From assembly GCA_045637165.1 (NCBI GenBank), contig JAZTYU010000009.1:17456-81455 (forward strand): 64,000 nucleotides of DNA, in the 5' to 3' direction. Source of the DNA: Candidatus Enterousia sp. Lineage in GTDB: Bacteria; Pseudomonadota; Alphaproteobacteria; Rs-D84. Positions 6,771 through 59,712 of the stretch are shown in pieces. A program made the position numbers and the translations under genes. Under the pieces are notes generated by a model, which saw only the letters and a list, made by a program, of their open reading frames with translations, had not been told where the DNA came from and ran no database searches. Position 1 is the stretch's first letter. Every line of letters begins with the position of its first letter.

Positions 6771-6910
6771 ATCTGGATTCCATCTATTTATTTAATTACG
6801 ATAACAAATATATAAGACCTACATAAAAAAATTCAACCCCAAAATGCGATTTAGGGCTAAATTCTTTGGGCTTGCACAAATTTCAAAAATGTTCTAATAA
6901 TAATAACATT

Positions 6911-8890
6911 ATGACAGAGAAAAAGACACAAACATACGACGCATCAGACATCCAGGTTCTCGAAGGGCTTGAACCCGTTCGCCTACGTCCTGGAATGTAT
7001 ATTGGTGGCACAGATGAAAAAGCATGGCATCACCTGCCGATTGAAATAATGGACAACTCGATTGACGAAGCGGTTGCTGGCTTTGCCAAGAAAATAACTG
7101 TGCATTTAATTGATTCCAAGACTATTGAGATTGCGGATGACGGCCGTGGCATTCCCGTGGACGAGCATCCAAAATATCCTGGCAAATCTGCCCTAGAAGT
7201 AATTTTGACCACACTGCATTCTGGCGGTAAATTTAACAACAATGTTTATAAAACCAGCGGTGGTCTGCATGGTGTTGGTTCTGCGGTTGTGAATGCTTTA
7301 TCATCTGAAATGATTGTTGACATTGCCCGTGATGGATATAACTGGCACCAGACATTTTCACGGGGCCAAACCACATCACCTATGACCCGTGGCGAAGCGA
7401 CAAAGAACCACGGAACAAAAATCCGCTTTACAATTGATGACGAAATCTTTGGCACATCTGCTGTGTTCAAACCGATAAAAATTTACCGTATGGCCCGTGC
7501 CAAGGCATTTTTATCACGTGGTGTAAAAATCGATTGGCGTTGCAATCCAGAATTACTAACAGACGATATGAATATCCCTGCTAACACCACATTTTATTAT
7601 CCAAATGGTGTTGCTGATTTCCTGGCAGAAAAGACAGATTCCAAGCCACGCATTTTACCACGCATATTCAGTGGCAGTGTTGACTTTCCTGACGACAGTG
7701 GCCGTGTAGAATGGGCATTGACATTTTTAACTGATGAAAATGGTGCGGCATCTGACGACGGATTTTTCTCGTCCTATTGTAATACGATTGCAACGATTGA
7801 TGGTGGAACACACGAAACAGGATTCAAATCTGCGATTACCAAAGGAATAAAAGCATACGGTGAAAAAGTAAACAATAAATCCGCTGCAACAATTATTGGC
7901 GATGACGTATTCGATTCGGTTGCTGCGATTGTTTCTGTCTTTTACAAGACACCACAGTTCTTGGGTCAAACCAAGGAAAAATTATCTAATCCAGAGGTTG
8001 CCCGTTTCACAGAAAATGCCCTACGTGATCCATGGGAAATGTTTTTGGCATCCGACCCAAAAACAGCAAATGCCCTGCTTGATTTTGTTATAAACCTGGC
8101 AAACGCCCGTATAAAGACAAAGCAAGTCAAAGATGTCGCACGCAAAACCCCGACCAAGCGTATTCGTATGCCTGCAAAATTGGCAGACTGTTCCAAGCAC
8201 GGCATTGCCGGCACAGAACTATTTATTGTTGAGGGGGAATCGGCAGGCGGAACTGCAAAACAAGCCCGTGACCGTGCAACCCAGGCAATTATGCCCCTGC
8301 GTGGCAAGGTGTTAAATGTAATTTCAAATTCTGACGAACGCTTTGGTGCGAACAAGGAATTAAATGACCTGGTCGATATTATTGGTGCTGGCACAGCCAA
8401 CAATTGGAACGATGATAAATTGCGTTATGAAAAGATTATAATTATGACCGATGCTGACGTTGACGGCAGCCATATTGCATCACTGTTGATGGCATTTTTC
8501 TATCAACACATGCCCCAGTTGATTTATGGTGGTCACCTGTATTTATCTTGTCCACCATTGTATAAATTGACATCTGGCACCGAATCGATTTACGTTGATT
8601 CTGACGAAGAACTTGAAACACTAAAATCAACAAAATATAAAAACAAACGTGTTGAAATATCTCGATTCAAAGGGCTTGGCGAAATGATGCCCAACCAACT
8701 AAAAGAAACAACAATGTCGCCTAAAACCCGTCGTTTAATCCGTGTTGACCTACCACCACGCACCGAAGAAGGCGCCGAAGACACAGAAAAAACAAAAACA
8801 ATTGTTTCTGAACTGATGGGCAAAAAACCTGAATTTAGATTTAAATTCATCACTGAACACGCCCAATTCGTCAAAGATTTGTTCGTATAA
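6911..8890 (+). CDS. parE: Type IIA topoisomerase ATPase subunit B; the ~660 aa size argues topoisomerase IV ParE rather than GyrB
   Basis: GHKL ATPase and TOPRIM motifs (LEGLEPVRLRPGMYIGGTD, GLHGVGSAVVNALS, EGESAGG, PLRGKVLNV, IMTDADVDGSHI). The ORF track starts at 6866; the ATG at 6911 (MTEKKTQ) is likelier. GyrB is usually ~800 aa. Confidence 0.65.
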   Translation: MTEKKTQTYDASDIQVLEGLEPVRLRPGMYIGGTDEKAWHHLPIEIMDNSIDEAVAGFAKKITVHLIDSKTIEIADDGRGIPVDEHPKYPGKSALEVILTTLHSGGKFNNNVYKTSGGLHGVGSAVVNALSSEMIVDIARDGYNWHQTFSRGQTTSPMTRGEATKNHGTKIRFTIDDEIFGTSAVFKPIKIYRMARAKAFLSRGVKIDWRCNPELLTDDMNIPANTTFYYPNGVADFLAEKTDSKPRILPRIFSGSVDFPDDSGRVEWALTFLTDENGAASDDGFFSSYCNTIATIDGGTHETGFKSAITKGIKAYGEKVNNKSAATIIGDDVFDSVAAIVSVFYKTPQFLGQTKEKLSNPEVARFTENALRDPWEMFLASDPKTANALLDFVINLANARIKTKQVKDVARKTPTKRIRMPAKLADCSKHGIAGTELFIVEGESAGGTAKQARDRATQAIMPLRGKVLNVISNSDERFGANKELNDLVDIIGAGTANNWNDDKLRYEKIIIMTDADVDGSHIASLLMAFFYQHMPQLIYGGHLYLSCPPLYKLTSGTESIYVDSDEELETLKSTKYKNKRVEISRFKGLGEMMPNQLKETTMSPKTRRLIRVDLPPRTEEGAEDTEKTKTIVSELMGKKPEFRFKFITEHAQFVKDLFV

Positions 8891-9862: not shown

Positions 9863-11113
9863 ATGAAAAAATTTTTTATCATACTAACACTTGCACTTAC
9901 AATTACACAATCACACGGGGCAAAATTAAAATATCCACACCTTAGTCAATACTGGGGCAATGGTGAAATGAATTACTGTGGCGATAATGATATTGCCAAC
10001 GCCTGCATCGGCGAAGCAACCAAACACAAATGCGCCCCCGGCAAAATTTACTCTGCCCGTTACCAATTTTACAATGGCAAATACACATACACTGATGAAT
10101 TTTCAAACCTGATGATGATGGCACGTGAATTTAATGAACACGGCGCACTATTTTGCCCAACACAACTTGACGGACAAAACGAAAACGACAGCAAAGGCTA
10201 TACCGCATACTATGAACCCAATGGCACAAATACCTGTGTATGGCTGTGCCAGGCGGGTTGGACTGGCCCAAACTGCAACGCACACACAACCGAATTTGAT
10301 GGCACTTGCAACCTAAACAAATTTTTGCGTTCAAACTACTCCGACATCAAATCTGTCCACGATTTTGATAAAAACAGCAAAGGAAATATAGAAGACCAAA
10401 TACCATTTTTTTATATAAACGATTATCAAACATGCTCATATATAAAATCCAACGGCAACACATCCAGCATAAAAGAGAACGAACACGATATGGGGTTATT
10501 TATTACCCGATGGCTGGACAGTGGCAACGGCGCATTTGCCCGTCAAATGATTGTCCTGTCAAAACGAACCGGCACAAATTCATCGGACATATATGTCTAT
10601 CCTGCATCAAAAAGCACCGAAATTCTGGTATGTATCAACGGCTACCAACCAAATTTAGCCGGCACCGATTGCGAACCAATAAATCACGAATCCTGCACAA
10701 TGACGGTCGCATCCCAAAATATGTGTGGCGGTTGGACATTATCGGGCTTTGATTCCGAACAACACGTCCTGACCGATTCTGATGGTTGCTATAAATACAC
10801 CTGCAAAAAAACGGGCTATGCCTTTGCAGGCATTGCCGACCATACCTGCACCGAATGCACAACCACAAACCGTGGCGGTATAGAACCAAACAACGGCACC
10901 TGTGTAAAATGCCCCAGTGGCACCATATTCAATAAAAAGGACACTGCAAATAACTTTTGCAGTCCCGCAATCGGTCTTTCTAAGTCAGATATGATGTATG
11001 GTCGTGGCAAGACAAAAAATAACGCCGGCAATATATCTGAACAATGTTGGACAATGACCGACCCCGACAAATACAAAGAATGTGTTCTGAATCAAAATAA
11101 CGGGTCGAAATAA
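9863..11113 (+). CDS. Secreted cysteine-rich protein with EGF-like module
   Basis: Signal peptide MKKFFIILTLALTITQSHGA; ~30 Cys; CVWLCQAGWTGPNC matches the EGF-like C-x-C-x2-G-W-x-G-x2-C pattern; further CxC/CxxC clusters (CTECTTTNRGGIEPNNGTCVKCPSGT). Confidence 0.6.
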   Translation: MKKFFIILTLALTITQSHGAKLKYPHLSQYWGNGEMNYCGDNDIANACIGEATKHKCAPGKIYSARYQFYNGKYTYTDEFSNLMMMAREFNEHGALFCPTQLDGQNENDSKGYTAYYEPNGTNTCVWLCQAGWTGPNCNAHTTEFDGTCNLNKFLRSNYSDIKSVHDFDKNSKGNIEDQIPFFYINDYQTCSYIKSNGNTSSIKENEHDMGLFITRWLDSGNGAFARQMIVLSKRTGTNSSDIYVYPASKSTEILVCINGYQPNLAGTDCEPINHESCTMTVASQNMCGGWTLSGFDSEQHVLTDSDGCYKYTCKKTGYAFAGIADHTCTECTTTNRGGIEPNNGTCVKCPSGTIFNKKDTANNFCSPAIGLSKSDMMYGRGKTKNNAGNISEQCWTMTDPDKYKECVLNQNNGSK

Positions 11114-11783: not shown

Positions 11784-14700
11784 TTATGCTTTTTTAACAG
11801 CAATACTGAACGAATATCCTTCGATATCGGTGTTGTATTCACCTTCACTGATATTCATTTCAACAACCAGCGCATCACGCATAATGCGACGCTTGTGCTG
11901 TTCGATTGCATTTGCCAATGCTGGTTCTGCCGTATATGTCAAAATAATTCTATCTGACACATCCAGCCCTGCTGCCTTGCGAGTATCCTGAATAAAACGC
12001 AATGCGTCATTAGCCAATCCTTCGGCGACCAACTCGGCACTGATTTCAGTATCTAGCACAACAACAGCAGTATTATCTGACAATGCCGCACCTGTAATCC
12101 CAGGCCGCACGGTCAAACGCATTTCAAATTCATCTGCGTTCAGCACATGCCCTGAGGCAAGCAACTTATCACCATCGATTTCATAATCGCCACGTTTTAC
12201 TGCTGGGATAATTTCTTTTAATGCCCCCCCCAAACGGGCACCAATTTTTGGTGTAATCAAATAGACAAAGCTATCTGCAACCGATTCTATATTTGCATCA
12301 AACTTAATCGATTTCACATTTAATTCGTCCTTGATAATATCTGCATACTTTTCCAGATTTACCCCTGCCACAGTCAACATATTTAACGGCAAACGATTAC
12401 GCAATCCATATTGTTCACGCAACTGTTTACCAACAGACACGATTGCCTGCACACGACGCATATCATCAACGATTTCGTTATCGACATCACCTGGCACAGG
12501 GAACTTGGTCAAATGCACGGATTCATCCCCTGTCAAGTTTGTAAAGATATATTCAGAAACGAACGGTGCGAACGGTGCCAAAACCCTGCATACGCCGGTC
12601 AACACGGTCCACAGCGTATCAAACGCATCTTGTTCTTCATCCCAGAATCTTGCACGACCACGTCTGATATACCAGTTATTTAATATATCCAAGAATCGCA
12701 CAAATTCCTTGATCGCGGCATCAGGCTTATATTCATCCAACGACTTTTTCACTGCTGCAACCAGAACATTTAATTCTGCCAAAATATATTTATCCAACGC
12801 ATTTTCTGGATTTACCATTTCACGTGCTGTGATATTTCCTGCATTTGCATACAATGTAAAGAAGTGATATGCATTCCACAGCGGCGTTTGAATAGTTTTT
12901 GTTGATTCGACAAAAACTTTACCCTCTTTATCAACAGGCACAGGTTCTGCCTTCATAAAATTAGACCCCAAGATATACAAACGCACTGCATCTGCACCAT
13001 ACTGTTCAATCTGTTCACTTGGGTCAACAAAGTTCCGCAAAGATTTCGAAAACTTCTTTTTATTTTCATCAACCACCATACCATTTGCAGACACAACCCT
13101 AAACGCAGGCTTATCAAACAAAGCCGTTGCCAAAACCATCAACGCATAGAACCAACCACGTGTTTGGTCTTGTCCTTCGATAATATAGTCTGCTGGGAAC
13201 GTTGCATTAAACCGGTCAACATTTTCAAATGGATAGTGCAACGACGCCCATGGCATAGACCCTGATTCCACCCAGCAATCTAAAACATCTGGAATACGCA
13301 CCCATCCATCCTTGGTCAGTTTATCCAACGTTGGGCGATGCAAATCATCAACCGGTACACCAAAGAATTCTTCTAGTTCTGCAATAGAACCAAAGATTTT
13401 ATATTCACCATCTTTTTCCCAGATTGGCAACGGCATACCCCAGAAACGATTTCTGGATATAGACCACGGACGAGCATTTTCAATCCACGAACGGAAACGT
13501 TCCCCTGCACTGGTCCAATTCACGGTTGCATTATTTGCCAACAATTTATCTTTGATTTTTGGCACATCGATATACCACGAATCGGTTGCACGCTGAATCA
13601 ATTTTTCTTTGGACCTATCCCCAAACGGATACGAGTGTTTATATTGTTCTTTTTTGACCAAGCGACCATTTGCCTTTAACCAATCCATAATTTTTGGTGT
13701 TGCAGCAAAGATATTTTCCCCTGCGAAATCGACAACTGTTTCATCAAAGTTCCCATATGTCCCAACATTTAACAGCACAGGGAATTTTGGGTCAATATTT
13801 TTTGCCGCCCAAAAGTCTTCTGCCCCATACGCAGGTGCGATATGAACAATACCTGTTCCATCTGAATCAGAAACATAATCTGCTGGGATTACCTGGAACA
13901 ACAAATCAGATTGCCCTGCATAATATGGGAACAACGGTCCATAGTGCAATCCAACCAAGTCAGCCCCTTTGACAGAACCAATCTGCGTTGCATTTGCAAA
14001 CTGTTTTTCATATGCCTTTAATCGACTTGCGGCGACGACATAGACCGCCCCATCACTGTCCTGCATACGCAGATATTCCATATTTGGATTTACCGCCAAC
14101 GCTGAATTTGCAGGCAACGTCCATGGCGTAGTCGTCCATGCAATTGCACGGTCGCCATTTTCCAGTTCGAACCAAACAGTCACCGCATCATCAACAATTT
14201 CACGATAATCACTGGACGCTTCTGAATTAGAAATCACCGTCCCATTTACCCAATCATATGGATTTACACTGTAATCTTTGTATAACAATCCCTTTTCATA
14301 CAAGGACTTTAACGTCCACAGCATAGATTCCATATAGTTCTTATTCATGGTCTTATAACCATATTCATCGCCTATATCGACCCAACGTCCCATACGCTGA
14401 ATAAAATGATTCCACTCATTCGTATACGTCATAACGTCCGACCGACACATATCACAGAATGCCGCAATTCCATCATTTGCAACAATATCCTTGGCGGCCC
14501 GCCCCTGTTTTTTTTCAACCGAATTTTCCGCAGGCAATCCATGGCAATCCCATCCCAATTCACGACGAACGAAACGTCCGTTCATTGTCTGGAAACGTGC
14601 GACCATATCCTTGACCACCGACACCCCCAAATGTCCCCAGTGTGGCAAACCATTTGCAAAAGGCGGCCCGTCATAGAAACTAAACGGATGTCCCTGTTTA

Positions 14701-14813
14701 GTCTGTTCCAACGACTTATGGAAAGTATTTTCATCTGCCCACTTTTTCAAGACACCTTGTTCCAAGGCTGTAAAATCTGGACGTGCATCAGTTTTTGTAT
14801 AAGCCATATTCAT
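11784..14813 (-). CDS. ileS: Isoleucyl-tRNA synthetase, eukaryote-like (type 2) form
   Basis: ~1000 aa class I aaRS: HIGH-region variant PFANGLPHWGHL, KMSKS variant KKFSKS, editing domain, and the long C-terminus typical of type 2 IleRS. SD AGGTGA precedes the ATGs; the ORF track begins at a GTG at 14816. Confidence 0.93.
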   Translation of the reverse strand: MNMAYTKTDARPDFTALEQGVLKKWADENTFHKSLEQTKQGHPFSFYDGPPFANGLPHWGHLGVSVVKDMVARFQTMNGRFVRRELGWDCHGLPAENSVEKKQGRAAKDIVANDGIAAFCDMCRSDVMTYTNEWNHFIQRMGRWVDIGDEYGYKTMNKNYMESMLWTLKSLYEKGLLYKDYSVNPYDWVNGTVISNSEASSDYREIVDDAVTVWFELENGDRAIAWTTTPWTLPANSALAVNPNMEYLRMQDSDGAVYVVAASRLKAYEKQFANATQIGSVKGADLVGLHYGPLFPYYAGQSDLLFQVIPADYVSDSDGTGIVHIAPAYGAEDFWAAKNIDPKFPVLLNVGTYGNFDETVVDFAGENIFAATPKIMDWLKANGRLVKKEQYKHSYPFGDRSKEKLIQRATDSWYIDVPKIKDKLLANNATVNWTSAGERFRSWIENARPWSISRNRFWGMPLPIWEKDGEYKIFGSIAELEEFFGVPVDDLHRPTLDKLTKDGWVRIPDVLDCWVESGSMPWASLHYPFENVDRFNATFPADYIIEGQDQTRGWFYALMVLATALFDKPAFRVVSANGMVVDENKKKFSKSLRNFVDPSEQIEQYGADAVRLYILGSNFMKAEPVPVDKEGKVFVESTKTIQTPLWNAYHFFTLYANAGNITAREMVNPENALDKYILAELNVLVAAVKKSLDEYKPDAAIKEFVRFLDILNNWYIRRGRARFWDEEQDAFDTLWTVLTGVCRVLAPFAPFVSEYIFTNLTGDESVHLTKFPVPGDVDNEIVDDMRRVQAIVSVGKQLREQYGLRNRLPLNMLTVAGVNLEKYADIIKDELNVKSIKFDANIESVADSFVYLITPKIGARLGGALKEIIPAVKRGDYEIDGDKLLASGHVLNADEFEMRLTVRPGITGAALSDNTAVVVLDTEISAELVAEGLANDALRFIQDTRKAAGLDVSDRIILTYTAEPALANAIEQHKRRIMRDALVVEMNISEGEYNTDIEGYSFSIAVKKA

Positions 14814-14825
14814 CACCTGTTTTTA

Positions 14826-14915
14826 AATTAAAAACGGGCGCCCACGCGCCCCAGCCACCGCCAAAGCGCAGTCGCCAGTTATTTAATAATAATTATTGTT
14901 GTCTGAATCATCACG
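14826..14915 (-). promoter_or_regulatory. Putative transcription attenuator of ileS: Ile-rich leader peptide plus intrinsic terminator
   Basis: On the minus strand, ATG at 14911 encodes MIQTTIIIIK (ATG ATT CAG ACA ACA ATA ATT ATT ATT AAA TAA; stop at 14879-14881). About 27 nt downstream is the hairpin GGGCGCGTGGGCGCCC (14836-14851) followed by GUUUUUAAUUU. Then come the SD AGGTGA and the ileS start. Confidence 0.6.
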
Positions 14916-15050
14916 CACCAGGATAAAACAAAAACCTCAAAAAATCAAGTAATTGTATAAATTTCCCTACCCATAAAAAGCCGGCAAAAGCAAAATTTCA
15001 AATAAAAAAACCCCGGACTGGGATTTTTTTATTTGGTTTTCCTCATCATT

Positions 15051-16589
15051 TTATTGGATACCGACGCGGAACTCATCGCCCCAGTTAGAAATCACCTGAC
15101 CTCCAACAGTGCATTGAATATCTTCGAAACCATCTTCGATTTGGTTCTTTTTTACAATATTACTGGTTATCAAGCCCCCAGCAGTTCCCAAAACAACCCC
15201 TGCCACAGAATCTGATACCAAACGTGAAGTATTAAAATTACCTTTTTCGTCTTTCCAGACACTGACCTTGAATCCAGAACGAATCGAATCCAACACATCT
15301 GCCGCACTGGTTATACGTTTTTGAATCGCCGACACTTCAGCCTCCGCTTCCAATTTTTCACGCTTCGCACGTGCATCATCAGATTCAACACAGGCAGTCC
15401 CTGCATCATTTAATACCTTGTCATCATCTTTGCAACGACATTCTTTTTCTATCATATCCCACACAGCACCAACAACTTTCTCGCAATTTTCAATCGCAGG
15501 ATTCAAAACACATTTCTTACCCCGATAAATATTACGTGGATTATCGCATTTACATTGACCTGTTTCCCAATATGCTCCTGTTCCAGACGCAGCCTCGCAT
15601 TCACGTCGTGCAGTGGCTTCATCTGTCAAATCACATTTGTTTCCATTGCGTTTGTAATTATCATCTAAGCAAACACAAACACCACCATCTTCACGTAAAT
15701 TTTTAGCATTATCACATTTGCACAAACTACCTTTCCACTCCCCACCAGAATCACGACATCTTTTTGCTTTTTGTTGATTTTGCTGTTCTTGCTGTTTCCG
15801 TCTATTATCATCCTCTTCTTTCTTTTTTCTTTCCTTGAATTCTTTGGTTTCAACACAGCCCTGGGTCGCTGATTTAAATTCGTAATCATTATTGATACAT
15901 TCACAAGCGGTTCTGTCTGCTTTTAATTTCAAATTTTTTCCTGCATCACAAGAACAAGTATTATTCGACCAAACGCCACCAGACGTTTCACAAACATTTT
16001 GCCGATTGTCCACTATACAATCTGTTTTAGCTGTATTTGGAATATACCCTTCATTACACGCATAATAAACACAGGCATCATTCCCTGCCAATGTAATATC
16101 GTTATCACCAGCTGTCTCGGTATGGGTTGTTTTTGAACCGGCCAACAGATATCTTGTGCGTCCATTTTCTGTTGCTGCTTGTTTTAGAGGAGAATTGTTA
16201 CAAACAACTGTTGGATTATATGACCGCCACTCGTCCCAAGCCCCAGTAATATCTACACATTGAAACAAATGAATAATTTCATTATCATGCACATCACGTT
16301 GCCCAATAATACGCCCATAACCACACTCTTGCCCATTATTAAATGCCCCATTATCACTATCACAAGAATAACATTGGTCGCTACCTGGGTGCGAACGAAT
16401 GTATTCTTGGTTTTCACCAACAGCCAAATCATTATCTGGACACGCCGCTAAAATACATTTTTGCAAAGAGCTTCCCGCCGAATAAGTTAATGGTTGCATC
16501 CCATACCCATATGTCGGACTTGCAAAACTTGCCCCACCTGCAAGCATAAAGATTCCACAAAAAACTGACAGCATCAGAATTTTTTTCAT
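15051..16589 (-). CDS. Secreted cysteine-rich repeat protein (512 aa) with a charged coiled-coil segment
   Basis: Signal peptide MKKILMLSVFCGIFMLAGGASFA; repeated ~30-aa Cys modules (CSCDAGKNLKLKADRTACEC; CKCDNAKNLREDGGVCVC; CKCDNPRNIYRGKKC; CRCKDDDKVLNDAGTAC); central KE/Q-rich stretch; sigma70-like promoter upstream. Similar in style to the 9863 gene. Confidence 0.6.
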   Translation of the reverse strand: MKKILMLSVFCGIFMLAGGASFASPTYGYGMQPLTYSAGSSLQKCILAACPDNDLAVGENQEYIRSHPGSDQCYSCDSDNGAFNNGQECGYGRIIGQRDVHDNEIIHLFQCVDITGAWDEWRSYNPTVVCNNSPLKQAATENGRTRYLLAGSKTTHTETAGDNDITLAGNDACVYYACNEGYIPNTAKTDCIVDNRQNVCETSGGVWSNNTCSCDAGKNLKLKADRTACECINNDYEFKSATQGCVETKEFKERKKKEEDDNRRKQQEQQNQQKAKRCRDSGGEWKGSLCKCDNAKNLREDGGVCVCLDDNYKRNGNKCDLTDEATARRECEAASGTGAYWETGQCKCDNPRNIYRGKKCVLNPAIENCEKVVGAVWDMIEKECRCKDDDKVLNDAGTACVESDDARAKREKLEAEAEVSAIQKRITSAADVLDSIRSGFKVSVWKDEKGNFNTSRLVSDSVAGVVLGTAGGLITSNIVKKNQIEDGFEDIQCTVGGQVISNWGDEFRVGIQ

Positions 16590-16661: not shown

Positions 16662-16688
16662 AAAAACGCCCAAACGGGCGGTTTTTAT
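16662..16688 (-). terminator. Intrinsic terminator after dnaA
   Basis: cgccc-aaac-gggcg hairpin with a T-run on the minus strand (aaaaacgcccaaacgggcggttttta). Confidence 0.6.
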
Positions 16689-17962
16689 TTACATTCATTT
16701 ACAAACTGTTGTATCTGCGCTGCCAAAACCAAATCATTTGCTTTTTGCTTTTCAATCTGTTTGATTGCATACAAAACTGTTGCATGATCACGACCACCAA
16801 CAAAATTACCAATTTCTGACAAAGACAACTGTGTCGCTTCTTTTAATACAACCATCATAATCTGACGTGCCAAGACCAATGAACGACTGCGACCGGTGCC
16901 ACAAACTGCATCATATGAAACTGCCAATTTTTCACACATATCTTTGACCATTGCTGTTGGTGTTTTTGCAGTCTGCAATGTATCTGCCAACAAACGCTGT
17001 GCAATTTCCATATCAACATTTGCACCCATCAATTCAACATATGCTTTGATTTTTGTTGCAACACCTGCGATTTGATGCCCATCATTTGCAATACGTTTTA
17101 CCAAAACATCTGCAACATCTGATTTTACACCTGCACGTTTCAACATAACTGACTTCACATATGTATTTGGTGCAATGACATCTGCAACCAAACCTGATGC
17201 CAACAACCCCTGGGCATGACGATCAAAACCTGTCAAATTGCTTGGTGCTGCATTTGCAGTGATAACAATATTTTTGCCAGCGTTGCGTAAATCAACAACC
17301 AACTGCAAGAATTCTTCTGTTGATGCTTTCTTGCCACTTAATGCCTGAACATCATCCAAGATAAATGTTTCGCAATTACGGCAGAAATCTTTGAATGCGA
17401 AAACATTGTGTTCTTTCAGACTGCGTGTGAATTCAGAAACAAACTGTGCACCACTCATCTTTACAACTTTTGAATTTGATGCACCACAAATGCATTCTGC
17501 CAACAAAGATTTACCACAACCTGCCGCACCATAGATAAACAATGGTGAAAACGCAACCACACCTGCTGCAACTTTCTTGCATGCAGAAACAACAAACATA
17601 TTTTCATCTGATGTAACAAAAGCATCAAAAGCAACGTTTGTAGCAACTGGTGTTGCGACTGGTGCGAATGCCTGTGCCTTGTTGTCATTTGCAACTGATG
17701 TTGCGGCAACCTTGGCATTACGAACAACAACTTTTACACCCAAACCAAAAGATGCAGCAACATCTGATAAAACACCTGCATGAACACTGTTGATAAAATC
17801 CGCTGAAAACTGATTTTGTGCACCTAATACCAAAACACCATCTACAACATCAAAAGACAAAGGTGCAATCCAAGAAGTAAATGTAGCAGAATCGACTTTT
17901 GCAGCAATGGCCCCTTTGATTGTTTCCAGGTTTGTCATTTTAATTTTTACTGCTGTCTGCAT
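16685..17962 (-). CDS. dnaA: Chromosomal replication initiator DnaA
   Basis: AAA+ Walker A (GAAGCGKSLL), sensor motifs, C-terminal DNA-binding domain IV (GGRDHATVLYAIKQIEK). The ORF track starts at a TTG at 18028; the ATG at 17962 (MQTAVKIKM) is likelier. Confidence 0.9.
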   Translation of the reverse strand: MQTAVKIKMTNLETIKGAIAAKVDSATFTSWIAPLSFDVVDGVLVLGAQNQFSADFINSVHAGVLSDVAASFGLGVKVVVRNAKVAATSVANDNKAQAFAPVATPVATNVAFDAFVTSDENMFVVSACKKVAAGVVAFSPLFIYGAAGCGKSLLAECICGASNSKVVKMSGAQFVSEFTRSLKEHNVFAFKDFCRNCETFILDDVQALSGKKASTEEFLQLVVDLRNAGKNIVITANAAPSNLTGFDRHAQGLLASGLVADVIAPNTYVKSVMLKRAGVKSDVADVLVKRIANDGHQIAGVATKIKAYVELMGANVDMEIAQRLLADTLQTAKTPTAMVKDMCEKLAVSYDAVCGTGRSRSLVLARQIMMVVLKEATQLSLSEIGNFVGGRDHATVLYAIKQIEKQKANDLVLAAQIQQFVNECK

Positions 17963-18156
17963 TCTGTTTCTCCTTTCCTTCCCTAAAAGAGAGCCGTCTG
18001 AACCAGGTTGTAAAAGCCACCTGCACAAAACACCATTTTCTGCCTTCCTGTTCAGAATTATGATATTTTTATTGTCCTACTTTTAACTCTCTCGCCGTTA
18101 AAATTTTTGAACTTCATTTTATTTCTGGCCTTTGAACCTAAATAAAAATCCATCCA

Positions 18157-55463: not shown

Positions 55464-57197
55464 TTACAATGGCATTTTCACAGCATTTTTCATCATTTCA
55501 ATGAATTCTGCCATTGGCATAACTTCCTGTTTTTCAACGCCCAAGCGACGCAGAGTAACATTTTTATCAGCCATTTCTTTTTCACCAACAATTGCGATAA
55601 TTGGTGTTTTTGCCAACGACAATTCACGGATTTTATAGTTTACTTTTTCATCACGCAAATCTGCACGTGCATTTACACCAGCACCACGCAATTGTGCAAC
55701 AATTTCATTTGCATACTGTGCATATTTTTCTGAAATTGGTGCAACAACGACTGGTTCTGGACTCAGCCACAATGGCAAATTACCACCTGTTGATTCCAAC
55801 AGCACACCCATAAATCTTTCAATAGACCCCAACATTGCACGATGCAACATAATTGGGCGATGTTTTTCACCATCTTCACCAACGTATGACAAATCGAATC
55901 GTTCTGGCAGATTCATATCCAACTGCACAGTTCCACACTGCCATACACGCCCCATAGAATCTTTCAGATAATTATCAATCTTTGGTCCATAGAACGCTGC
56001 ATCACCTTCGGCGATTTCGTATTCAATACCATTTGCGTCCAGTGCGTGCTTTAATGCCCCTTCGGCCTTGTCCCAAATTTCATCAGATGCAATACGAAAT
56101 TCAGATTCTTTACGTGTTGCCAACTTCATTGTGATATTTTCGAAACCGAACTTTCCATAAATATCCTTGATGAACCGCAAAATTTTAACAACTTCCTCTT
56201 CTAATTGTTCTTCTGTGCAGAAAATATGAGCATCGTCCTGCGTAAATTCACGAACACGCATCAATCCCGACAAACCACCTGCTGCCTCATAGCGATGAAC
56301 TTTACCAAATTCCGCCATATACAATGGCAAATCTTTGTATGAACGAAGTCCGTGTCCAAATACCAACATACCACCTGGACAAGACATTGGTTTAATACAG
56401 AACACTTTCCCGTCCTGTGTTTTACCAGAATAATTATGTTCGCCATATTTTGCCCAGTGCCCACTGCGTTCCCACAAACATCTGTCCATAACAGCAGGCG
56501 TTGAAATTTCCTGATACCCCGCCAATTCTTGACGATGACGGACATATTCAATCAATTTGCGATACATTTTGTATCCCTTGTCATGCCAGAACACAGACCC
56601 TGGTGCATATTCTGGTTCAAAATGGAACAAGTCCATATCTTTCCCCAGTTTGCGGTTATCACGTGCTGCGGCCTCTTCCTGCATTTTCAAGAAATTATCC
56701 AATTCTTCTTTTGTTGCAAATGCATCAACATAAATACGCTGCAACATTTTATTTTTTGCATCACCTTTCCAATAGGCCCCTGCAACACTACGGATTTTGA
56801 ACGCATCACGTGGCAAATCCTTAGAACTTTCAACGTGTGGTCCACGGCACAAGTCAACAAAATCACGGAAAGTATAAATTGACAAGGCCTCGCCTGCGGC
56901 ATCATATTCATTTAACCATTCCATTTTATATGGTTGATTTGCAAAAATTTCTTTAGCTTCATCTAACGAAACATTTTTCTGTTCAAAACGCCCATTAGAC
57001 TTGATTAAATCACGCATTTCCTTTTCGATTTGTGCAAAATCTTCTTCGGAAAAGCGATATTCTGTATCAAAGTCATAATAGAACCCATTTTCAATTGCTG
57101 GCCCCCCTGCGAATTTAACATCTGGGTGTAATTTTTTAACTGCGGCTGCCATAACATGTGCCAGCGAATGACGAATCAATTCAATATCATACGACAT
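55464..57197 (-). CDS. thrS: Threonyl-tRNA synthetase lacking the N-terminal TGS (N1) domain
   Basis: Begins with the editing (N2) domain HSLAH motif, class II catalytic core and C-terminal anticodon-binding domain. 577 aa versus ~640 usual. Confidence 0.9.
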   Translation of the reverse strand: MSYDIELIRHSLAHVMAAAVKKLHPDVKFAGGPAIENGFYYDFDTEYRFSEEDFAQIEKEMRDLIKSNGRFEQKNVSLDEAKEIFANQPYKMEWLNEYDAAGEALSIYTFRDFVDLCRGPHVESSKDLPRDAFKIRSVAGAYWKGDAKNKMLQRIYVDAFATKEELDNFLKMQEEAAARDNRKLGKDMDLFHFEPEYAPGSVFWHDKGYKMYRKLIEYVRHRQELAGYQEISTPAVMDRCLWERSGHWAKYGEHNYSGKTQDGKVFCIKPMSCPGGMLVFGHGLRSYKDLPLYMAEFGKVHRYEAAGGLSGLMRVREFTQDDAHIFCTEEQLEEEVVKILRFIKDIYGKFGFENITMKLATRKESEFRIASDEIWDKAEGALKHALDANGIEYEIAEGDAAFYGPKIDNYLKDSMGRVWQCGTVQLDMNLPERFDLSYVGEDGEKHRPIMLHRAMLGSIERFMGVLLESTGGNLPLWLSPEPVVVAPISEKYAQYANEIVAQLRGAGVNARADLRDEKVNYKIRELSLAKTPIIAIVGEKEMADKNVTLRRLGVEKQEVMPMAEFIEMMKNAVKMPL

Positions 57198-57240: not shown

Positions 57241-57337
57241 AAATTTTTATTAAGAAATGCGTTTGAACGCAACACAGAAATTACACCCCCAACGGGGTTG
57301 TAGTAGTTGTTGTAAAGAAATTTTTAAACAAATCCAT
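57241..57337 (-). promoter_or_regulatory. Putative transcription attenuator of thrS: Thr-rich leader peptide plus terminator
   Basis: Minus-strand ATG at 57337 encodes MDLFKNFFTTTTTTPLGV (six consecutive Thr codons ACA ACA ACT ACT ACA ACC; stop 57281-57283). The stop overlaps hairpin ccccgttgggg. A second hairpin gcgttcaaacgc followed by AUUUCUU comes ~45 nt before the thrS ATG. Confidence 0.55.
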
Positions 57338-57400: not shown

Positions 57401-58138
57401 TTATAAATCCAAAATACACCCAAACAGCACCGCAAAAAAGAAACACACACTGCCCCCAATTACGAACAAGTGCCAGACCGCATGCGAAAACTTCATACGT
57501 CGCCACAGATAGAATATCACCCCAATTGTATATGCCAATCCCCCGGCCAGAATAAACCACAATCCACGTTCCGGAATACTGCGAATCATTGCAGGCAATA
57601 TGAACAACAACGTCCACCCCATCGCAACATACAACGCCACCATCCATTTTGGCTGTTGACGTGGATTTTTAATTTTCATATACGCCCCAAACAATACAAT
57701 CCCCCATAAAATTGCAAAGACCGTCCAACCAACAAGCCCCCGCAAATTCACCAACAAAAATGGCGTATATGTCCCTGCAATCAATGCATAAATTGCAACA
57801 CTGTCCCAAACTTCAAAAAAGCATTCATGTTTTTTTCCGATTGTTGCATGACACATTGTCGAACCAAAATACAGGGTTATCATTGTCACACCAAATATAG
57901 CACATGAAACGATTGCCCACACATCACCCTTTATTCCTGCAAAAACAACCAACAAGGTCAACGCTGCAACGGCAAGTCCAATACCAATCCCATGCGTTAG
58001 AATATTTACAACTTCTTCTACATGCGTTGACGGTTTTTCCCAACGGAAAAGTCCTGTTGCACGCAAAACCTTTAACAGGTGTGAACCATGTTCATCTTTC
58101 TTTACAGCCTTGATTCTAGTCCGTTTAGACTCTGTCAT
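57401..58138 (-). CDS. Hemolysin III family (PAQR/YqfA) 7-TM protein
   Basis: EVVNILTHGIG and HLFVIGGS motifs with a 7-TM profile typical of the Hly-III family. Confidence 0.75.
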   Translation of the reverse strand: MTESKRTRIKAVKKDEHGSHLLKVLRATGLFRWEKPSTHVEEVVNILTHGIGIGLAVAALTLLVVFAGIKGDVWAIVSCAIFGVTMITLYFGSTMCHATIGKKHECFFEVWDSVAIYALIAGTYTPFLLVNLRGLVGWTVFAILWGIVLFGAYMKIKNPRQQPKWMVALYVAMGWTLLFILPAMIRSIPERGLWFILAGGLAYTIGVIFYLWRRMKFSHAVWHLFVIGGSVCFFFAVLFGCILDL

Positions 58139-59712
58139 TTTAATACCCCTTCGATTCGTTTTTGAACTCTATCACCGCCCATTACACTCATAATAGAATA
58201 CAAGTCAGGTGTATTTGTGCGTCCCGATAATGCCACACGCAAATTCATTGCCACATCACCATTTTTTACGCCCAAGCTTTCGGCAACAGCCACAATTTTT
58301 CCCCACCAAGTATCCTTGTCATCCGATTCGTCATACGATTCCAAAAACGCCTTTAATACATCCTGATTAAATTCATATTCGGTATTTGGAACAAACAAAT
58401 CATCCCAGAAAAACGCAACATTTTCCAGCGTTTGCGACCAAGTGATAAAATCTTTACGCACACGCTTTGGATTATCACGTTCAATACCCAACACACCGGT
58501 CAGATATGCCACATCCGCCACCTGCACCCGATTCGTTTCATTTCCATATTCATTTGCCCAGCCCACAACACGATTGACCAATTCTGGCACTGGCAAAGCC
58601 CCAATAAATTCCTTGGCCCACCATTCCAATTTTTTCATATCAAACAACGCACCAGACATAGGAATTTTTTTCGCACGCATTTCATAATCCCAGAACGATT
58701 TAACCTGCCCCTTCATTTTGGCCTCTTCGTATCCCGATGCTGCAATATTCCCCAGGTATTCAATTACCGCCTCAACCGGCCAGCCTGCCTCTAAAAAGAA
58801 CGCAACATTTGCCTCTGGGTCTTTACGTTTGGACAGTTTACGCTGTTTACCTGTTTCCTCGTCAATCTTATCAATAGTTGACGTATGAATATACAACGGT
58901 GCATTCCAGCCCATCATACGGAATAACTGCACATGCAATGGCAACGAAGGCAACCACTCTTCCCCACGAATAACGTGTGTTGTCCGCATAAAGTGGTCAT
59001 CACACAAATGTGCAAAATGATATGTTGGCAAACCGTCATTTGATTTAATCAGAACAATGTCTTCGTTATTTTCTGGGAATCCGATTGAGCCACGAACTGC
59101 ATCTTTGCAAAATATACGCTGTTCTGGATTTCCACTTGAATACAAACGAATCGATGGCACCAAACCGTTATCCAAATGTGTAATAATTTCTTCTTCGGTT
59201 AAATTTCTATCCCGTGCAAATTCACCATAGATACCCGTTGGAAATCCTGCCGCCTTTTGATTTTCACGAATTTGTTCCATATCGCCCGCACTTAAAAAAC
59301 AAGGATACGCCAATCCATTTTCTAACAAATGTGCCACAACACTATGGTAAATATCTTTTCTTTGTGATTGATAATAAGGTCCATACCCTTCAACATTGTT
59401 GTATTTCAATCCGAATCGGTCCATTGATTCTTCGATGATTTTAACAGCATCCGCAACCTCACGTTTTGTATCTGTATCTTCAATACGCAACATAAAAACA
59501 CCATCCGATTGCTGTGCCAACTTACAGTCTATCAACGCACCATACAGACCACCAATATGCATATACCCTGTTGGACTTGGGGCAAATCTTGTCACAAACG
59601 CCCCATCTGGCAGGTTGCGGGCCGGAAATTTTTCTTCCAACTGTTCAATTGTATATTTTGGTGCCGCACCTAAAACACGTGCGATTAAATCTTTTGACAA
59701 ACCGTTTCTCAT
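58135..59712 (-). CDS. gltX: Glutamyl-tRNA synthetase
   Basis: Class I motifs: RFAPSPTGYMHIGG (HIGH region) and KLSKRK (KMSKS); 525 aa. Confidence 0.9.
   Translation of the reverse strand: MRNGLSKDLIARVLGAAPKYTIEQLEEKFPARNLPDGAFVTRFAPSPTGYMHIGGLYGALIDCKLAQQSDGVFMLRIEDTDTKREVADAVKIIEESMDRFGLKYNNVEGYGPYYQSQRKDIYHSVVAHLLENGLAYPCFLSAGDMEQIRENQKAAGFPTGIYGEFARDRNLTEEEIITHLDNGLVPSIRLYSSGNPEQRIFCKDAVRGSIGFPENNEDIVLIKSNDGLPTYHFAHLCDDHFMRTTHVIRGEEWLPSLPLHVQLFRMMGWNAPLYIHTSTIDKIDEETGKQRKLSKRKDPEANVAFFLEAGWPVEAVIEYLGNIAASGYEEAKMKGQVKSFWDYEMRAKKIPMSGALFDMKKLEWWAKEFIGALPVPELVNRVVGWANEYGNETNRVQVADVAYLTGVLGIERDNPKRVRKDFITWSQTLENVAFFWDDLFVPNTEYEFNQDVLKAFLESYDESDDKDTWWGKIVAVAESLGVKNGDVAMNLRVALSGRTNTPDLYSIMSVMGGDRVQKRIEGVLK

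Follow-up and report, generated by a model that had tools for sequence, protein, structure and literature searches.

A conserved isoleucine-codon leader and predicted transcription attenuator upstream of ileS in Candidatus Enterousia and related uncultured Alphaproteobacteria

Introduction

Leader-peptide attenuation of an aminoacyl-tRNA synthetase (aaRS) gene is established for pheST in gamma-proteobacteria, and attenuators of trpS and leuS have been predicted in Streptomyces (PMC1262725). The same source places T-box riboswitches on ileS in Firmicutes and describes translational T-boxes in Actinobacteria (PMC1262725). In Caulobacter crescentus, an 'ileS leader CDS' (CCNA_03934) and a trpS leader CDS were annotated by ribosome profiling; CCNA_03934 was used as a control, and the text and supplements searched contain no leader sequence, structure or regulatory test for it (PMC4117421). 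Attenuation by trpL of S. meliloti is ribosome-dependent and involves a leaderless RNA: the transcript begins with the AUG of the leader ORF, which is translated from there (PMC10117765).

Here we describe an Ile-codon leader ORF and a predicted terminator that precede ileS on the minus strand of a 64,000-nt stretch of Candidatus Enterousia sp. DNA (hereafter the window, meaning the whole stretch analyzed). A first-pass annotation of this DNA had read the arrangement as ribosome-mediated attenuation of a synthetase gene. The locus is less novel than that reading implied, since aaRS attenuators are documented (PMC1262725) and the Caulobacter 'ileS leader CDS' is annotated (PMC4117421). We report the conservation of the leader and of its predicted RNA helices across related genomes, the predicted effect of ribosome position on folding, and the comparison of the locus with known systems.

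Results

Organization of the ileS locus

The ileS gene was identified by profile search, with a score of 755.6 bits for TIGR00392 against a cutoff of 621.4, and the Pfam result agreed. The encoded enzyme is a type 2 (eukaryote-like, MupA/MupB-related) IleRS, with scores of 591 bits for MupA and 579 bits for MupB, each under its own cutoff. The GTG at 14816 given as the ileS start in the ORF list was rejected; it sits within the Shine-Dalgarno (SD) sequence, and the alignment of orthologs begins at the ATG at 14807.

Along the minus strand, the intergenic region holds the terminator of the preceding gene, a promoter-like motif, the leader ORF, a G+C-rich block, a hairpin, a U-tract and the SD sequence, followed by ileS (Table 1). 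The MIQTTIIIIK ORF, GC hairpin, U-run and ileS SD and start described in the first-pass annotation were all present on the minus strand where it had placed them. Its location of the ORF upstream of ileS was correct; the approximate distance of 75 nt is replaced by exact values of 71 nt from the leader stop and 104 nt from the leader start to the ileS ATG. The terminator and the ileS ATG are just 28 nt apart, and the whole element extends over ~85 nt from the predicted start site to the U-tract.

A 512-aa ORF (15051-16589, minus strand) without a Pfam or NCBIfam match lies between dnaA (16685-18028) and the ileS leader, a placement that suggests that the window is probably near the replication origin. 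Another ORF without a Pfam or NCBIfam match, encoding 416 aa, was found at 9863-11113 on the plus strand.

Table 1. Coordinates of the features of the ileS locus and of the other synthetase genes in the window
Feature	Coordinates	Strand	Details	Basis
Terminator of preceding gene	15035-14999	-		terminator scan
Promoter-like motif	14948-14920	-	TTGATT (14948-43), 17-nt spacer, TATCCT (14925-20)	sequence
Leader ORF	14911-14879	-	MIQTTIIIIK, 10 codons plus stop; ATG 14911-09, ATT, CAG, ACA, ACA, Ile run, AAA 14884-82, TAA 14881-79	sequence
Four Ile codons (codons 6-9), presumed sensing codons	14896-14885	-	AUA AUU AUU AUU; ATA 14896-94, ATT 14893-91, ATT 14890-88, ATT 14887-85	sequence
P0 5' strand	14882..14888	-	UAUUAAA; third base of Ile3, Ile4 codon, Lys codon	pairing statistics
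P1 (anti-antiterminator, region 1:2)	14878-14851	-	directly 3' of the stop codon; ΔG ~-16 kcal/mol	
Antiterminator	14869-14846	-	10 bp; GCGCUUUGGC (14869-60) with GCUGGGGCGC (14855-46), loop GGUG	
Predicted terminator hairpin	14851-14836	-	GGGCGC-GUGG-GCGCCC; 6 G-C pairs, 4-nt loop	terminator scan
Predicted termination tract	14835-14825	-	G, UUUUU (14834-30), AAUUU	sequence
ileS	11784..14818	-	SD AGGUGA 14818-13, ATG 14807, stop 11784; 1007 aa	
thrS	55464-57197	-		TIGR00418
thrS leader ORF	57279-57335	-	MDLFKNFFTTTTTTPLGV plus stop; six consecutive Thr codons	
gltX	58135-59712	-	third synthetase gene in the window	

Conservation of the leader ORF

The leader was compared across 80 ileS loci, one genome per species, with 72-98% IleRS identity. 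All were from uncultured gut or rumen Alphaproteobacteria, many of them named Candidatus Enterousia; a protein homologue search with IleRS for distant orthologs returned only relatives of at least 83% identity. This analysis revealed the same leader ORF in 79 of the 80 orthologous loci, as the attenuation proposal had anticipated for related genomes. Among the 77 distinct sequences, the ORF was 10 codons long in 76, with Ile at codons 6-9. The codon that follows the Ile run was AAA in 63 sequences and AGA in 10, and the stop codon was UAA in 75. Residues 2-5 drifted freely and were found in 38 versions. Fixation of the Ile codons beside freely drifting neighbours indicates selection on the Ile codons and their position, not on the peptide. 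The motif of at least four Ile codons, one further codon and a stop occurred 80 times on both strands of 746 kb of related DNA, and 79 of these occurrences were at the ileS leader site. The leader observation is real and far beyond chance. A window-wide scan for ORFs with same-residue runs and terminators identified the ileS leader as the sole credible case.

Codon usage within the Ile run was also constrained. The first Ile codon was AUA in 75 of 76 sequences, although in 14 genes of the window AUA accounts for just 14% of all Ile codons. Both Ile2 and Ile3 were AUU, and Ile4 was AUU in 61 sequences and AUA in 15. No RNA pairing partner that would account for the invariant AUA (14894-14896, minus strand) was found. 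The AUA at Ile1 may render the leader sensitive to the minor, lysidine-modified tRNA-Ile2. The first-pass annotation had counted four Ile and two Thr codons; the Ile run was conserved and the Thr codons were not. The Thr codons were rejected as a second signal because these positions varied across the loci (T, A, K, N, S, Q).

A single ileS locus out of the 80, L060:2869-3003 (JAIDLK010000012.1), lacked the leader. Here a tRNA-Thr(CGU) gene is followed by a plain terminator (ACGACGGCTTCGTCGT plus TTTTTT) and then, 21 nt on, by ileS. No promoter was visible between this terminator and ileS, and expression of ileS at this locus would rely on terminator read-through.

Promoter motif and predicted leaderless start

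Of the 60 loci with no tRNA gene upstream, 50 carried a motif of the form TTGnnn-N17-TAnnnT that ends 7-10 nt 5' of the leader ATG. The version in the window, TTGATT-N17-TATCCT, had been missed by a strict consensus promoter scan. That scan detected no promoter in the 28 nt between the terminator and the ileS ATG, an interval too short to hold one. The promoter evidence thus lies upstream of the leader and not between the hairpin and ileS, as attenuation would call for. A motif that ends 7-10 nt before the ATG places the predicted transcription start at ~0-3 nt before the leader AUG, which leaves no room for an SD sequence. The leader ORF is therefore predicted to be essentially leaderless, and its translation is presumed from this predicted start; the conservation of the ORF at the codon level lends indirect support to translation and to a response to charged tRNA.

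In 20 of the 80 loci (L024, L028, L040, L054, L078 and 15 more), a tRNA-Thr(CGU) gene replaces the promoter. This gene, ~100-200 nt upstream of ileS, ends mostly 10-20 nt before the leader ATG. At these loci the tRNA, the leader and ileS would share one transcript, and the leader and ileS would depend on 3' processing of the tRNA.

Mutually exclusive helices in the leader RNA

Folding of the leader RNA revealed two competing helices, P1 and the antiterminator, upstream of and overlapping the predicted terminator. In P1, CUGGC and ACUGC (14878-68) pair with GCGGU and GCUGG (14861-51). This helix was found in 77 of 77 sequences, with energies of -8.2 to -16.7 kcal/mol (median -12.5). Its 5' arm is the variable strand, with 51 distinct versions, and for 50 of these 51 the pairing with the conserved 3' strand was stronger than for shuffled forms of the same arm.

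The antiterminator has strands in common with both P1 and the terminator and excludes both. Its energy is ~-14.3 kcal/mol in the window, with a median of -13.2 across the 77 sequences, and 95.3% of cells in the alignment of relatives could pair. A swap from G-C to A-U was found in three sequences and was mirrored in the terminator 3' arm (GCAC / GGGGUGC / GCACCC). RNAalifold, run unprompted, returned a consensus structure that was exactly the antiterminator. Of the two complementarities put forward in the first-pass annotation as a possible anti-terminator, gcgc/gcgc is real and forms the core of this helix, whereas ccacc/ggtgg is absent from the RNA, ccacc being on the other strand.

The terminator hairpin has an energy of -12.6 kcal/mol (median -11.6 across the 77 sequences). 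In these sequences 96.5% of cells could pair, and a swap from C-G to U-A was found in five. The five T columns of the U-tract were invariant in alignment A1. Mutually exclusive terminator and antiterminator folds, which the attenuation proposal had predicted, were thus present and conserved on folding of the 77 sequences.

The distal part of the U-tract (14832-27) doubles as the 3' strand of a further helix, P0. Its 5' strand pairs with UUUAAU(A) at 14832-26, giving 6 bp in the window, and the helix completes a three-way junction whose other arms are P1 and the terminator. In the P0 helix 93.1% of cells could pair, compared with 50-62% when the partners were slid, and the P0 score was reached by 0 of 500 shuffles. 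A swap from U-A to A-U was found in 13 sequences, and a G-U pair occurs where the Lys codon AAA becomes the Arg codon AGA; P0 shows compensatory changes from clade to clade. It plausibly acts like the A-tract of a strong terminator or shields the terminated RNA at its 3' end.

The antiterminator and terminator blocks were conserved beyond the needs of pairing, with 22 invariant columns. The near-invariance of the key blocks leaves little covariation to draw on, and the conservation of block sequence can be accounted for by the need of each block to pair with two partners. In the MFE fold of the window the leader also paired with the ileS ribosome-binding site; this contact was rejected, as its duplex energies were no better than those of shuffles (mean z 0.01) and own-locus and cross-locus pairings were equal.

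No T-box or relevant Rfam family was detected at 14500-15300 with E values up to 10, or in the whole window at gathering thresholds. Two weak matches were obtained, one to Leu_leader at 15004-15063, outside the element (14.7 bits, E = 4; gathering score 50), and one to the rimP leader (17.3 bits, E = 5.2). Both lie on the terminator of the neighbouring gene, at ~14973-15063.

Ribosome position and the proposed attenuation mechanism

At the sequence level, the locus combines an Ile-run ORF, a GC hairpin with a U-tract, an antiterminator that shares a strand with the terminator, and an upstream promoter motif. In the mechanism that we propose, transcription would begin at the leader AUG or a few bases away from it, and a ribosome would translate the 10-codon leader as RNA polymerase transcribes the downstream RNA. 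With no ribosome at the leader end, because it has been released or never translated, P1 would fold first; the terminator would then form, and transcription would end in the U-tract, before ileS. When charged tRNA-Ile is scarce, the ribosome would be delayed within the Ile run. Once the last Ile codon or codons occupy the A site, its leading edge would cover the base of P1 and the P0-forming tail of the leader, and the near-isoenergetic 10-bp antiterminator would form once its 3' strand emerges. The antiterminator would sequester the 5' arm of the terminator, and polymerase would read into ileS.

The spacing on which such a mechanism would depend is tightly conserved. The distance from the first base of Ile4 to the base of P1 is 9-12 nt in 76 of 77 sequences, and that from the first base of the stop codon to the antiterminator 5' strand is 11-13 nt, also in 76 of 77. 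No Ile codon falls within P1; the entire run is upstream of it. At a reach of 12 nt, Ile4 and Ile3 alone touch P1; at 9 nt, Ile4 alone touches it, and barely. Stalls at Ile1 or Ile2 leave P1 intact. Coverage of hairpin 1:2 by a stalled ribosome therefore turns on the reach that is assumed, being predicted for Ile3 and Ile4 at 12 nt and marginal at 9 nt. A ribosome at the stop codon masks the whole P1 5' arm and leaves most of the antiterminator strand free.

Masked folding was used to predict the structure of the RNA just before the terminator 3' arm is made, at 77 loci. The masking offset was 12 nt, the value used in ribosome profiling for how far the footprint edge lies from the A-site codon, counted from its first base. 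The antiterminator was predicted at 51 of 77 loci with no ribosome or with Ile1 or Ile2 in the A site, where it represents the equilibrium fold only. This number was 65 of 77 with Ile3 and 76 of 77 with Ile4 in the A site. With the stop codon in the A site it was 60 of 77, and 31 at a 15-nt reach. When the offset was set to 9 nt, the antiterminator was predicted at 51 of 77 loci for Ile1 to Ile3, equal to the value with no ribosome, at 65 for Ile4, and at 76 for both the Lys and the stop codon.

These predictions bear on both states of the proposed switch. A truncated antiterminator is predicted at 60 of 77 loci with a ribosome at the stop codon, and termination in the replete state is for this reason not robustly predicted. 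At the 51 loci noted above, the equilibrium fold is the antiterminator even when the terminator 3' arm has yet to be made, which means that the model leans on P1 folding first, kinetically; without a ribosome, P1 is able to fold before the antiterminator 3' strand exists. A ribosome on the Ile codons could only just reach P1, and we therefore only infer the direction of the response, which in the model would be more ileS when Ile-tRNA is scarce. Leader translation and actual termination are likewise predicted features of the model. Should RNA helices survive as close as ~9 nt to the A-site codon, a logic in which completed translation gives read-through becomes possible.

Other synthetase genes in the window

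A leader ORF was also found upstream of thrS. Its last Thr codons, together with the Pro codon, form one strand of a hairpin whose other strand consists of the Gly, Val and stop codons; this hairpin is followed by a weak terminator-like hairpin (GCGUUCAAACGC plus AUUUCUU). The weakness of this terminator explains why the thrS leader was missed by the window-wide scan for residue runs with terminators. The leader, of the form T5-7-P-[L/A]-G-V followed by a stop, was present at 32 of 33 metagenomic loci with at least 75% ThrRS identity and at one locus with 54% identity, and at none of 38 metagenomic loci with ~50% identity. The ORF at 6866-8890 was rejected as a thrS candidate; it encodes a topoisomerase IV or gyrase B-type subunit.

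No leader ORF or terminator was found upstream of gltX, which indicates that leader-peptide control is not universal for the aaRS genes of this genome. The broader suggestion of leader peptides on aaRS genes in this lineage was thus supported for thrS and unsupported for gltX. Predicted leader-peptide control of at least two synthetase genes, ileS and thrS, appears from these sequence comparisons to be a trait of the clade.

Discussion

We put the probability that the element is a ribosome-mediated transcription attenuator controlling ileS at about 0.75. The sequence-level tests favoured the attenuation architecture proposed for ileS by the first-pass annotation, with termination and the direction of the response as its predicted parts.

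The response could in principle run the other way. A ribosome at the Lys or stop codon would then unwind P1, so that completed translation of the leader would turn ileS on, and an early stall on the Ile codons or no translation would leave it off; ileS would be tied to overall translational capacity, with no negative feedback. If P1 persists to ~8-9 nt from the A-site codon, Ile-stalled ribosomes would hardly touch it and ribosomes at the Lys or stop codon would remove it, in keeping with the masked-folding counts at the 9-nt offset, and the antiterminator 5' strand, at its conserved distance from the stop codon, lies at the edge of a terminating ribosome. This arrangement would, however, yield less IleRS when Ile-tRNA is scarce, a positive feedback on an essential enzyme, and to our knowledge every characterized aaRS control (T-box, pheST attenuation, thrS autoregulation) runs opposite to such feedback. 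The Ile codons could also sit anywhere in the ORF, yet they keep to codons 6-9, at 9-12 nt from P1, and at the 12-15 nt reach derived from footprints a ribosome at the stop codon starts to mask the antiterminator. We consider this reversed response unlikely and favour the classical direction, because the alternative amounts to positive feedback on an essential enzyme and would not need an Ile run fixed beside P1.

Still less probable is that the terminated RNA, the decapeptide or both are the main product and act in trans like rnTrpL and peTrpL of S. meliloti, with control of ileS secondary, or constitutive through a leaky terminator. P0 joins the 5'-proximal leader tail to the U-tract and would give a closed, potentially stable ~85-nt RNA, the locus that lacks the leader (L060) keeps a plain terminator before ileS, and there is an alphaproteobacterial precedent for a leaderless attenuator RNA with trans functions (PMC10117765). 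A constitutive terminator would nonetheless have no role for the conserved antiterminator, the element was found upstream of ileS only, and the data suggested no target; residues 2-5 vary freely, with 38 variants, and a specific peptide function is unlikely for this reason. We regard as highly improbable an incidental ORF beside hairpins that serve as a binding site, either for a protein (IleRS autoregulation) or, T-box-like, for uncharged tRNA. Synthetase autoregulation is exemplified by E. coli thrS, and the 22 invariant columns, with conservation beyond pairing needs, would suit a bound RNA, but the overlapping pairing constraints already account for this conservation. Moreover, the Rfam searches of the region (E up to 10) and of the window (gathering thresholds) gave no T-box or other match, the structured part, at ~50 nt, is too short to accommodate a Stem I/specifier architecture, and the ORF shows codon-level selection, with its Ile codons and length fixed and neighbouring codons free. 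Taken together, these considerations favour ribosome-mediated attenuation with the classical response.

A more extensive reading can be built on attenuation. A synthetase regulon of at least ileS and thrS would be controlled by leader-peptide attenuators, the ileS version being ultra-compact and leaderless, with the invariant AUA reporting specifically on the lysidine-dependent minor tRNA-Ile2 and the P0-closed ~85-nt RNA persisting as a trans-acting sRNA like Sinorhizobium rnTrpL. In this combined form we rate it as doubtful.

The ileS element, as we read it, adds a well-conserved member to a textbook class of control device and does not define a new class. No concept of the field is changed by it, and a specialist would not be surprised. 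It adds well-supported cases to the short list of leader-peptide-controlled synthetase genes, and it offers a testable mechanism by which an uncultured, host-associated alphaproteobacterial clade would match IleRS and ThrRS to tRNA charging without T-boxes. The ~85-nt attenuator, with its tight spacing and P0, could also suit studies of the ribosome proximity needed to remodel nascent RNA. The element is not in Rfam, and its distinctive features are that it is very short, predicted to be leaderless, tightly spaced and equipped with P0.

A counterpart in gene and lineage is CCNA_03934 of Caulobacter, where a translated small ORF likewise lies upstream of ileS in another alphaproteobacterium; the Caulobacter ileS has ~969 codons by its listed coordinates, compared with 1007 aa for the type 2 enzyme here (PMC4117421). 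The trpL system of S. meliloti is also an alphaproteobacterial attenuator, and the ileS leader is predicted to be leaderless in the same way. It controls the biosynthetic trpE(G) through Trp codons, whereas the ileS element precedes a synthetase gene and carries Ile codons, and the S. meliloti RNA and peptide have proven trans functions. T-boxes regulate the same gene, and the signal proposed here is likewise the charging of tRNA-Ile; they sense uncharged tRNA directly by RNA-tRNA contact and have no ORF, in contrast to the ileS element, which has an ORF and in which no T-box was detected. The Rfam amino-acid leader families (Leu_leader, Thr_leader, His_leader and Trp_leader) also differ, as the element matched none of them at its gathering score.

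Among attenuators of synthetase genes, E. coli pheM-pheST and the Streptomyces trpS and leuS attenuators act on a different amino acid, gene and lineage and have no sequence relationship with the ileS element. The three-hairpin logic and the run of regulatory codons are shared with the enterobacterial ilv, leu, thr, his and trp leaders, which serve biosynthetic operons, are 14-32 codons long and have SD sequences. In E. coli trpL the regulatory codons lie inside region 1; the geometry of the ileS leader is marginal by comparison, with its Ile codons outside P1. Compared with pheM-pheST, the ileS leader is shorter, with 10 codons, and apparently leaderless, its regulatory codons lie entirely 5' of hairpin 1:2 and not inside it, and the element has an extra helix, P0, that connects the leader tail to the U-tract.
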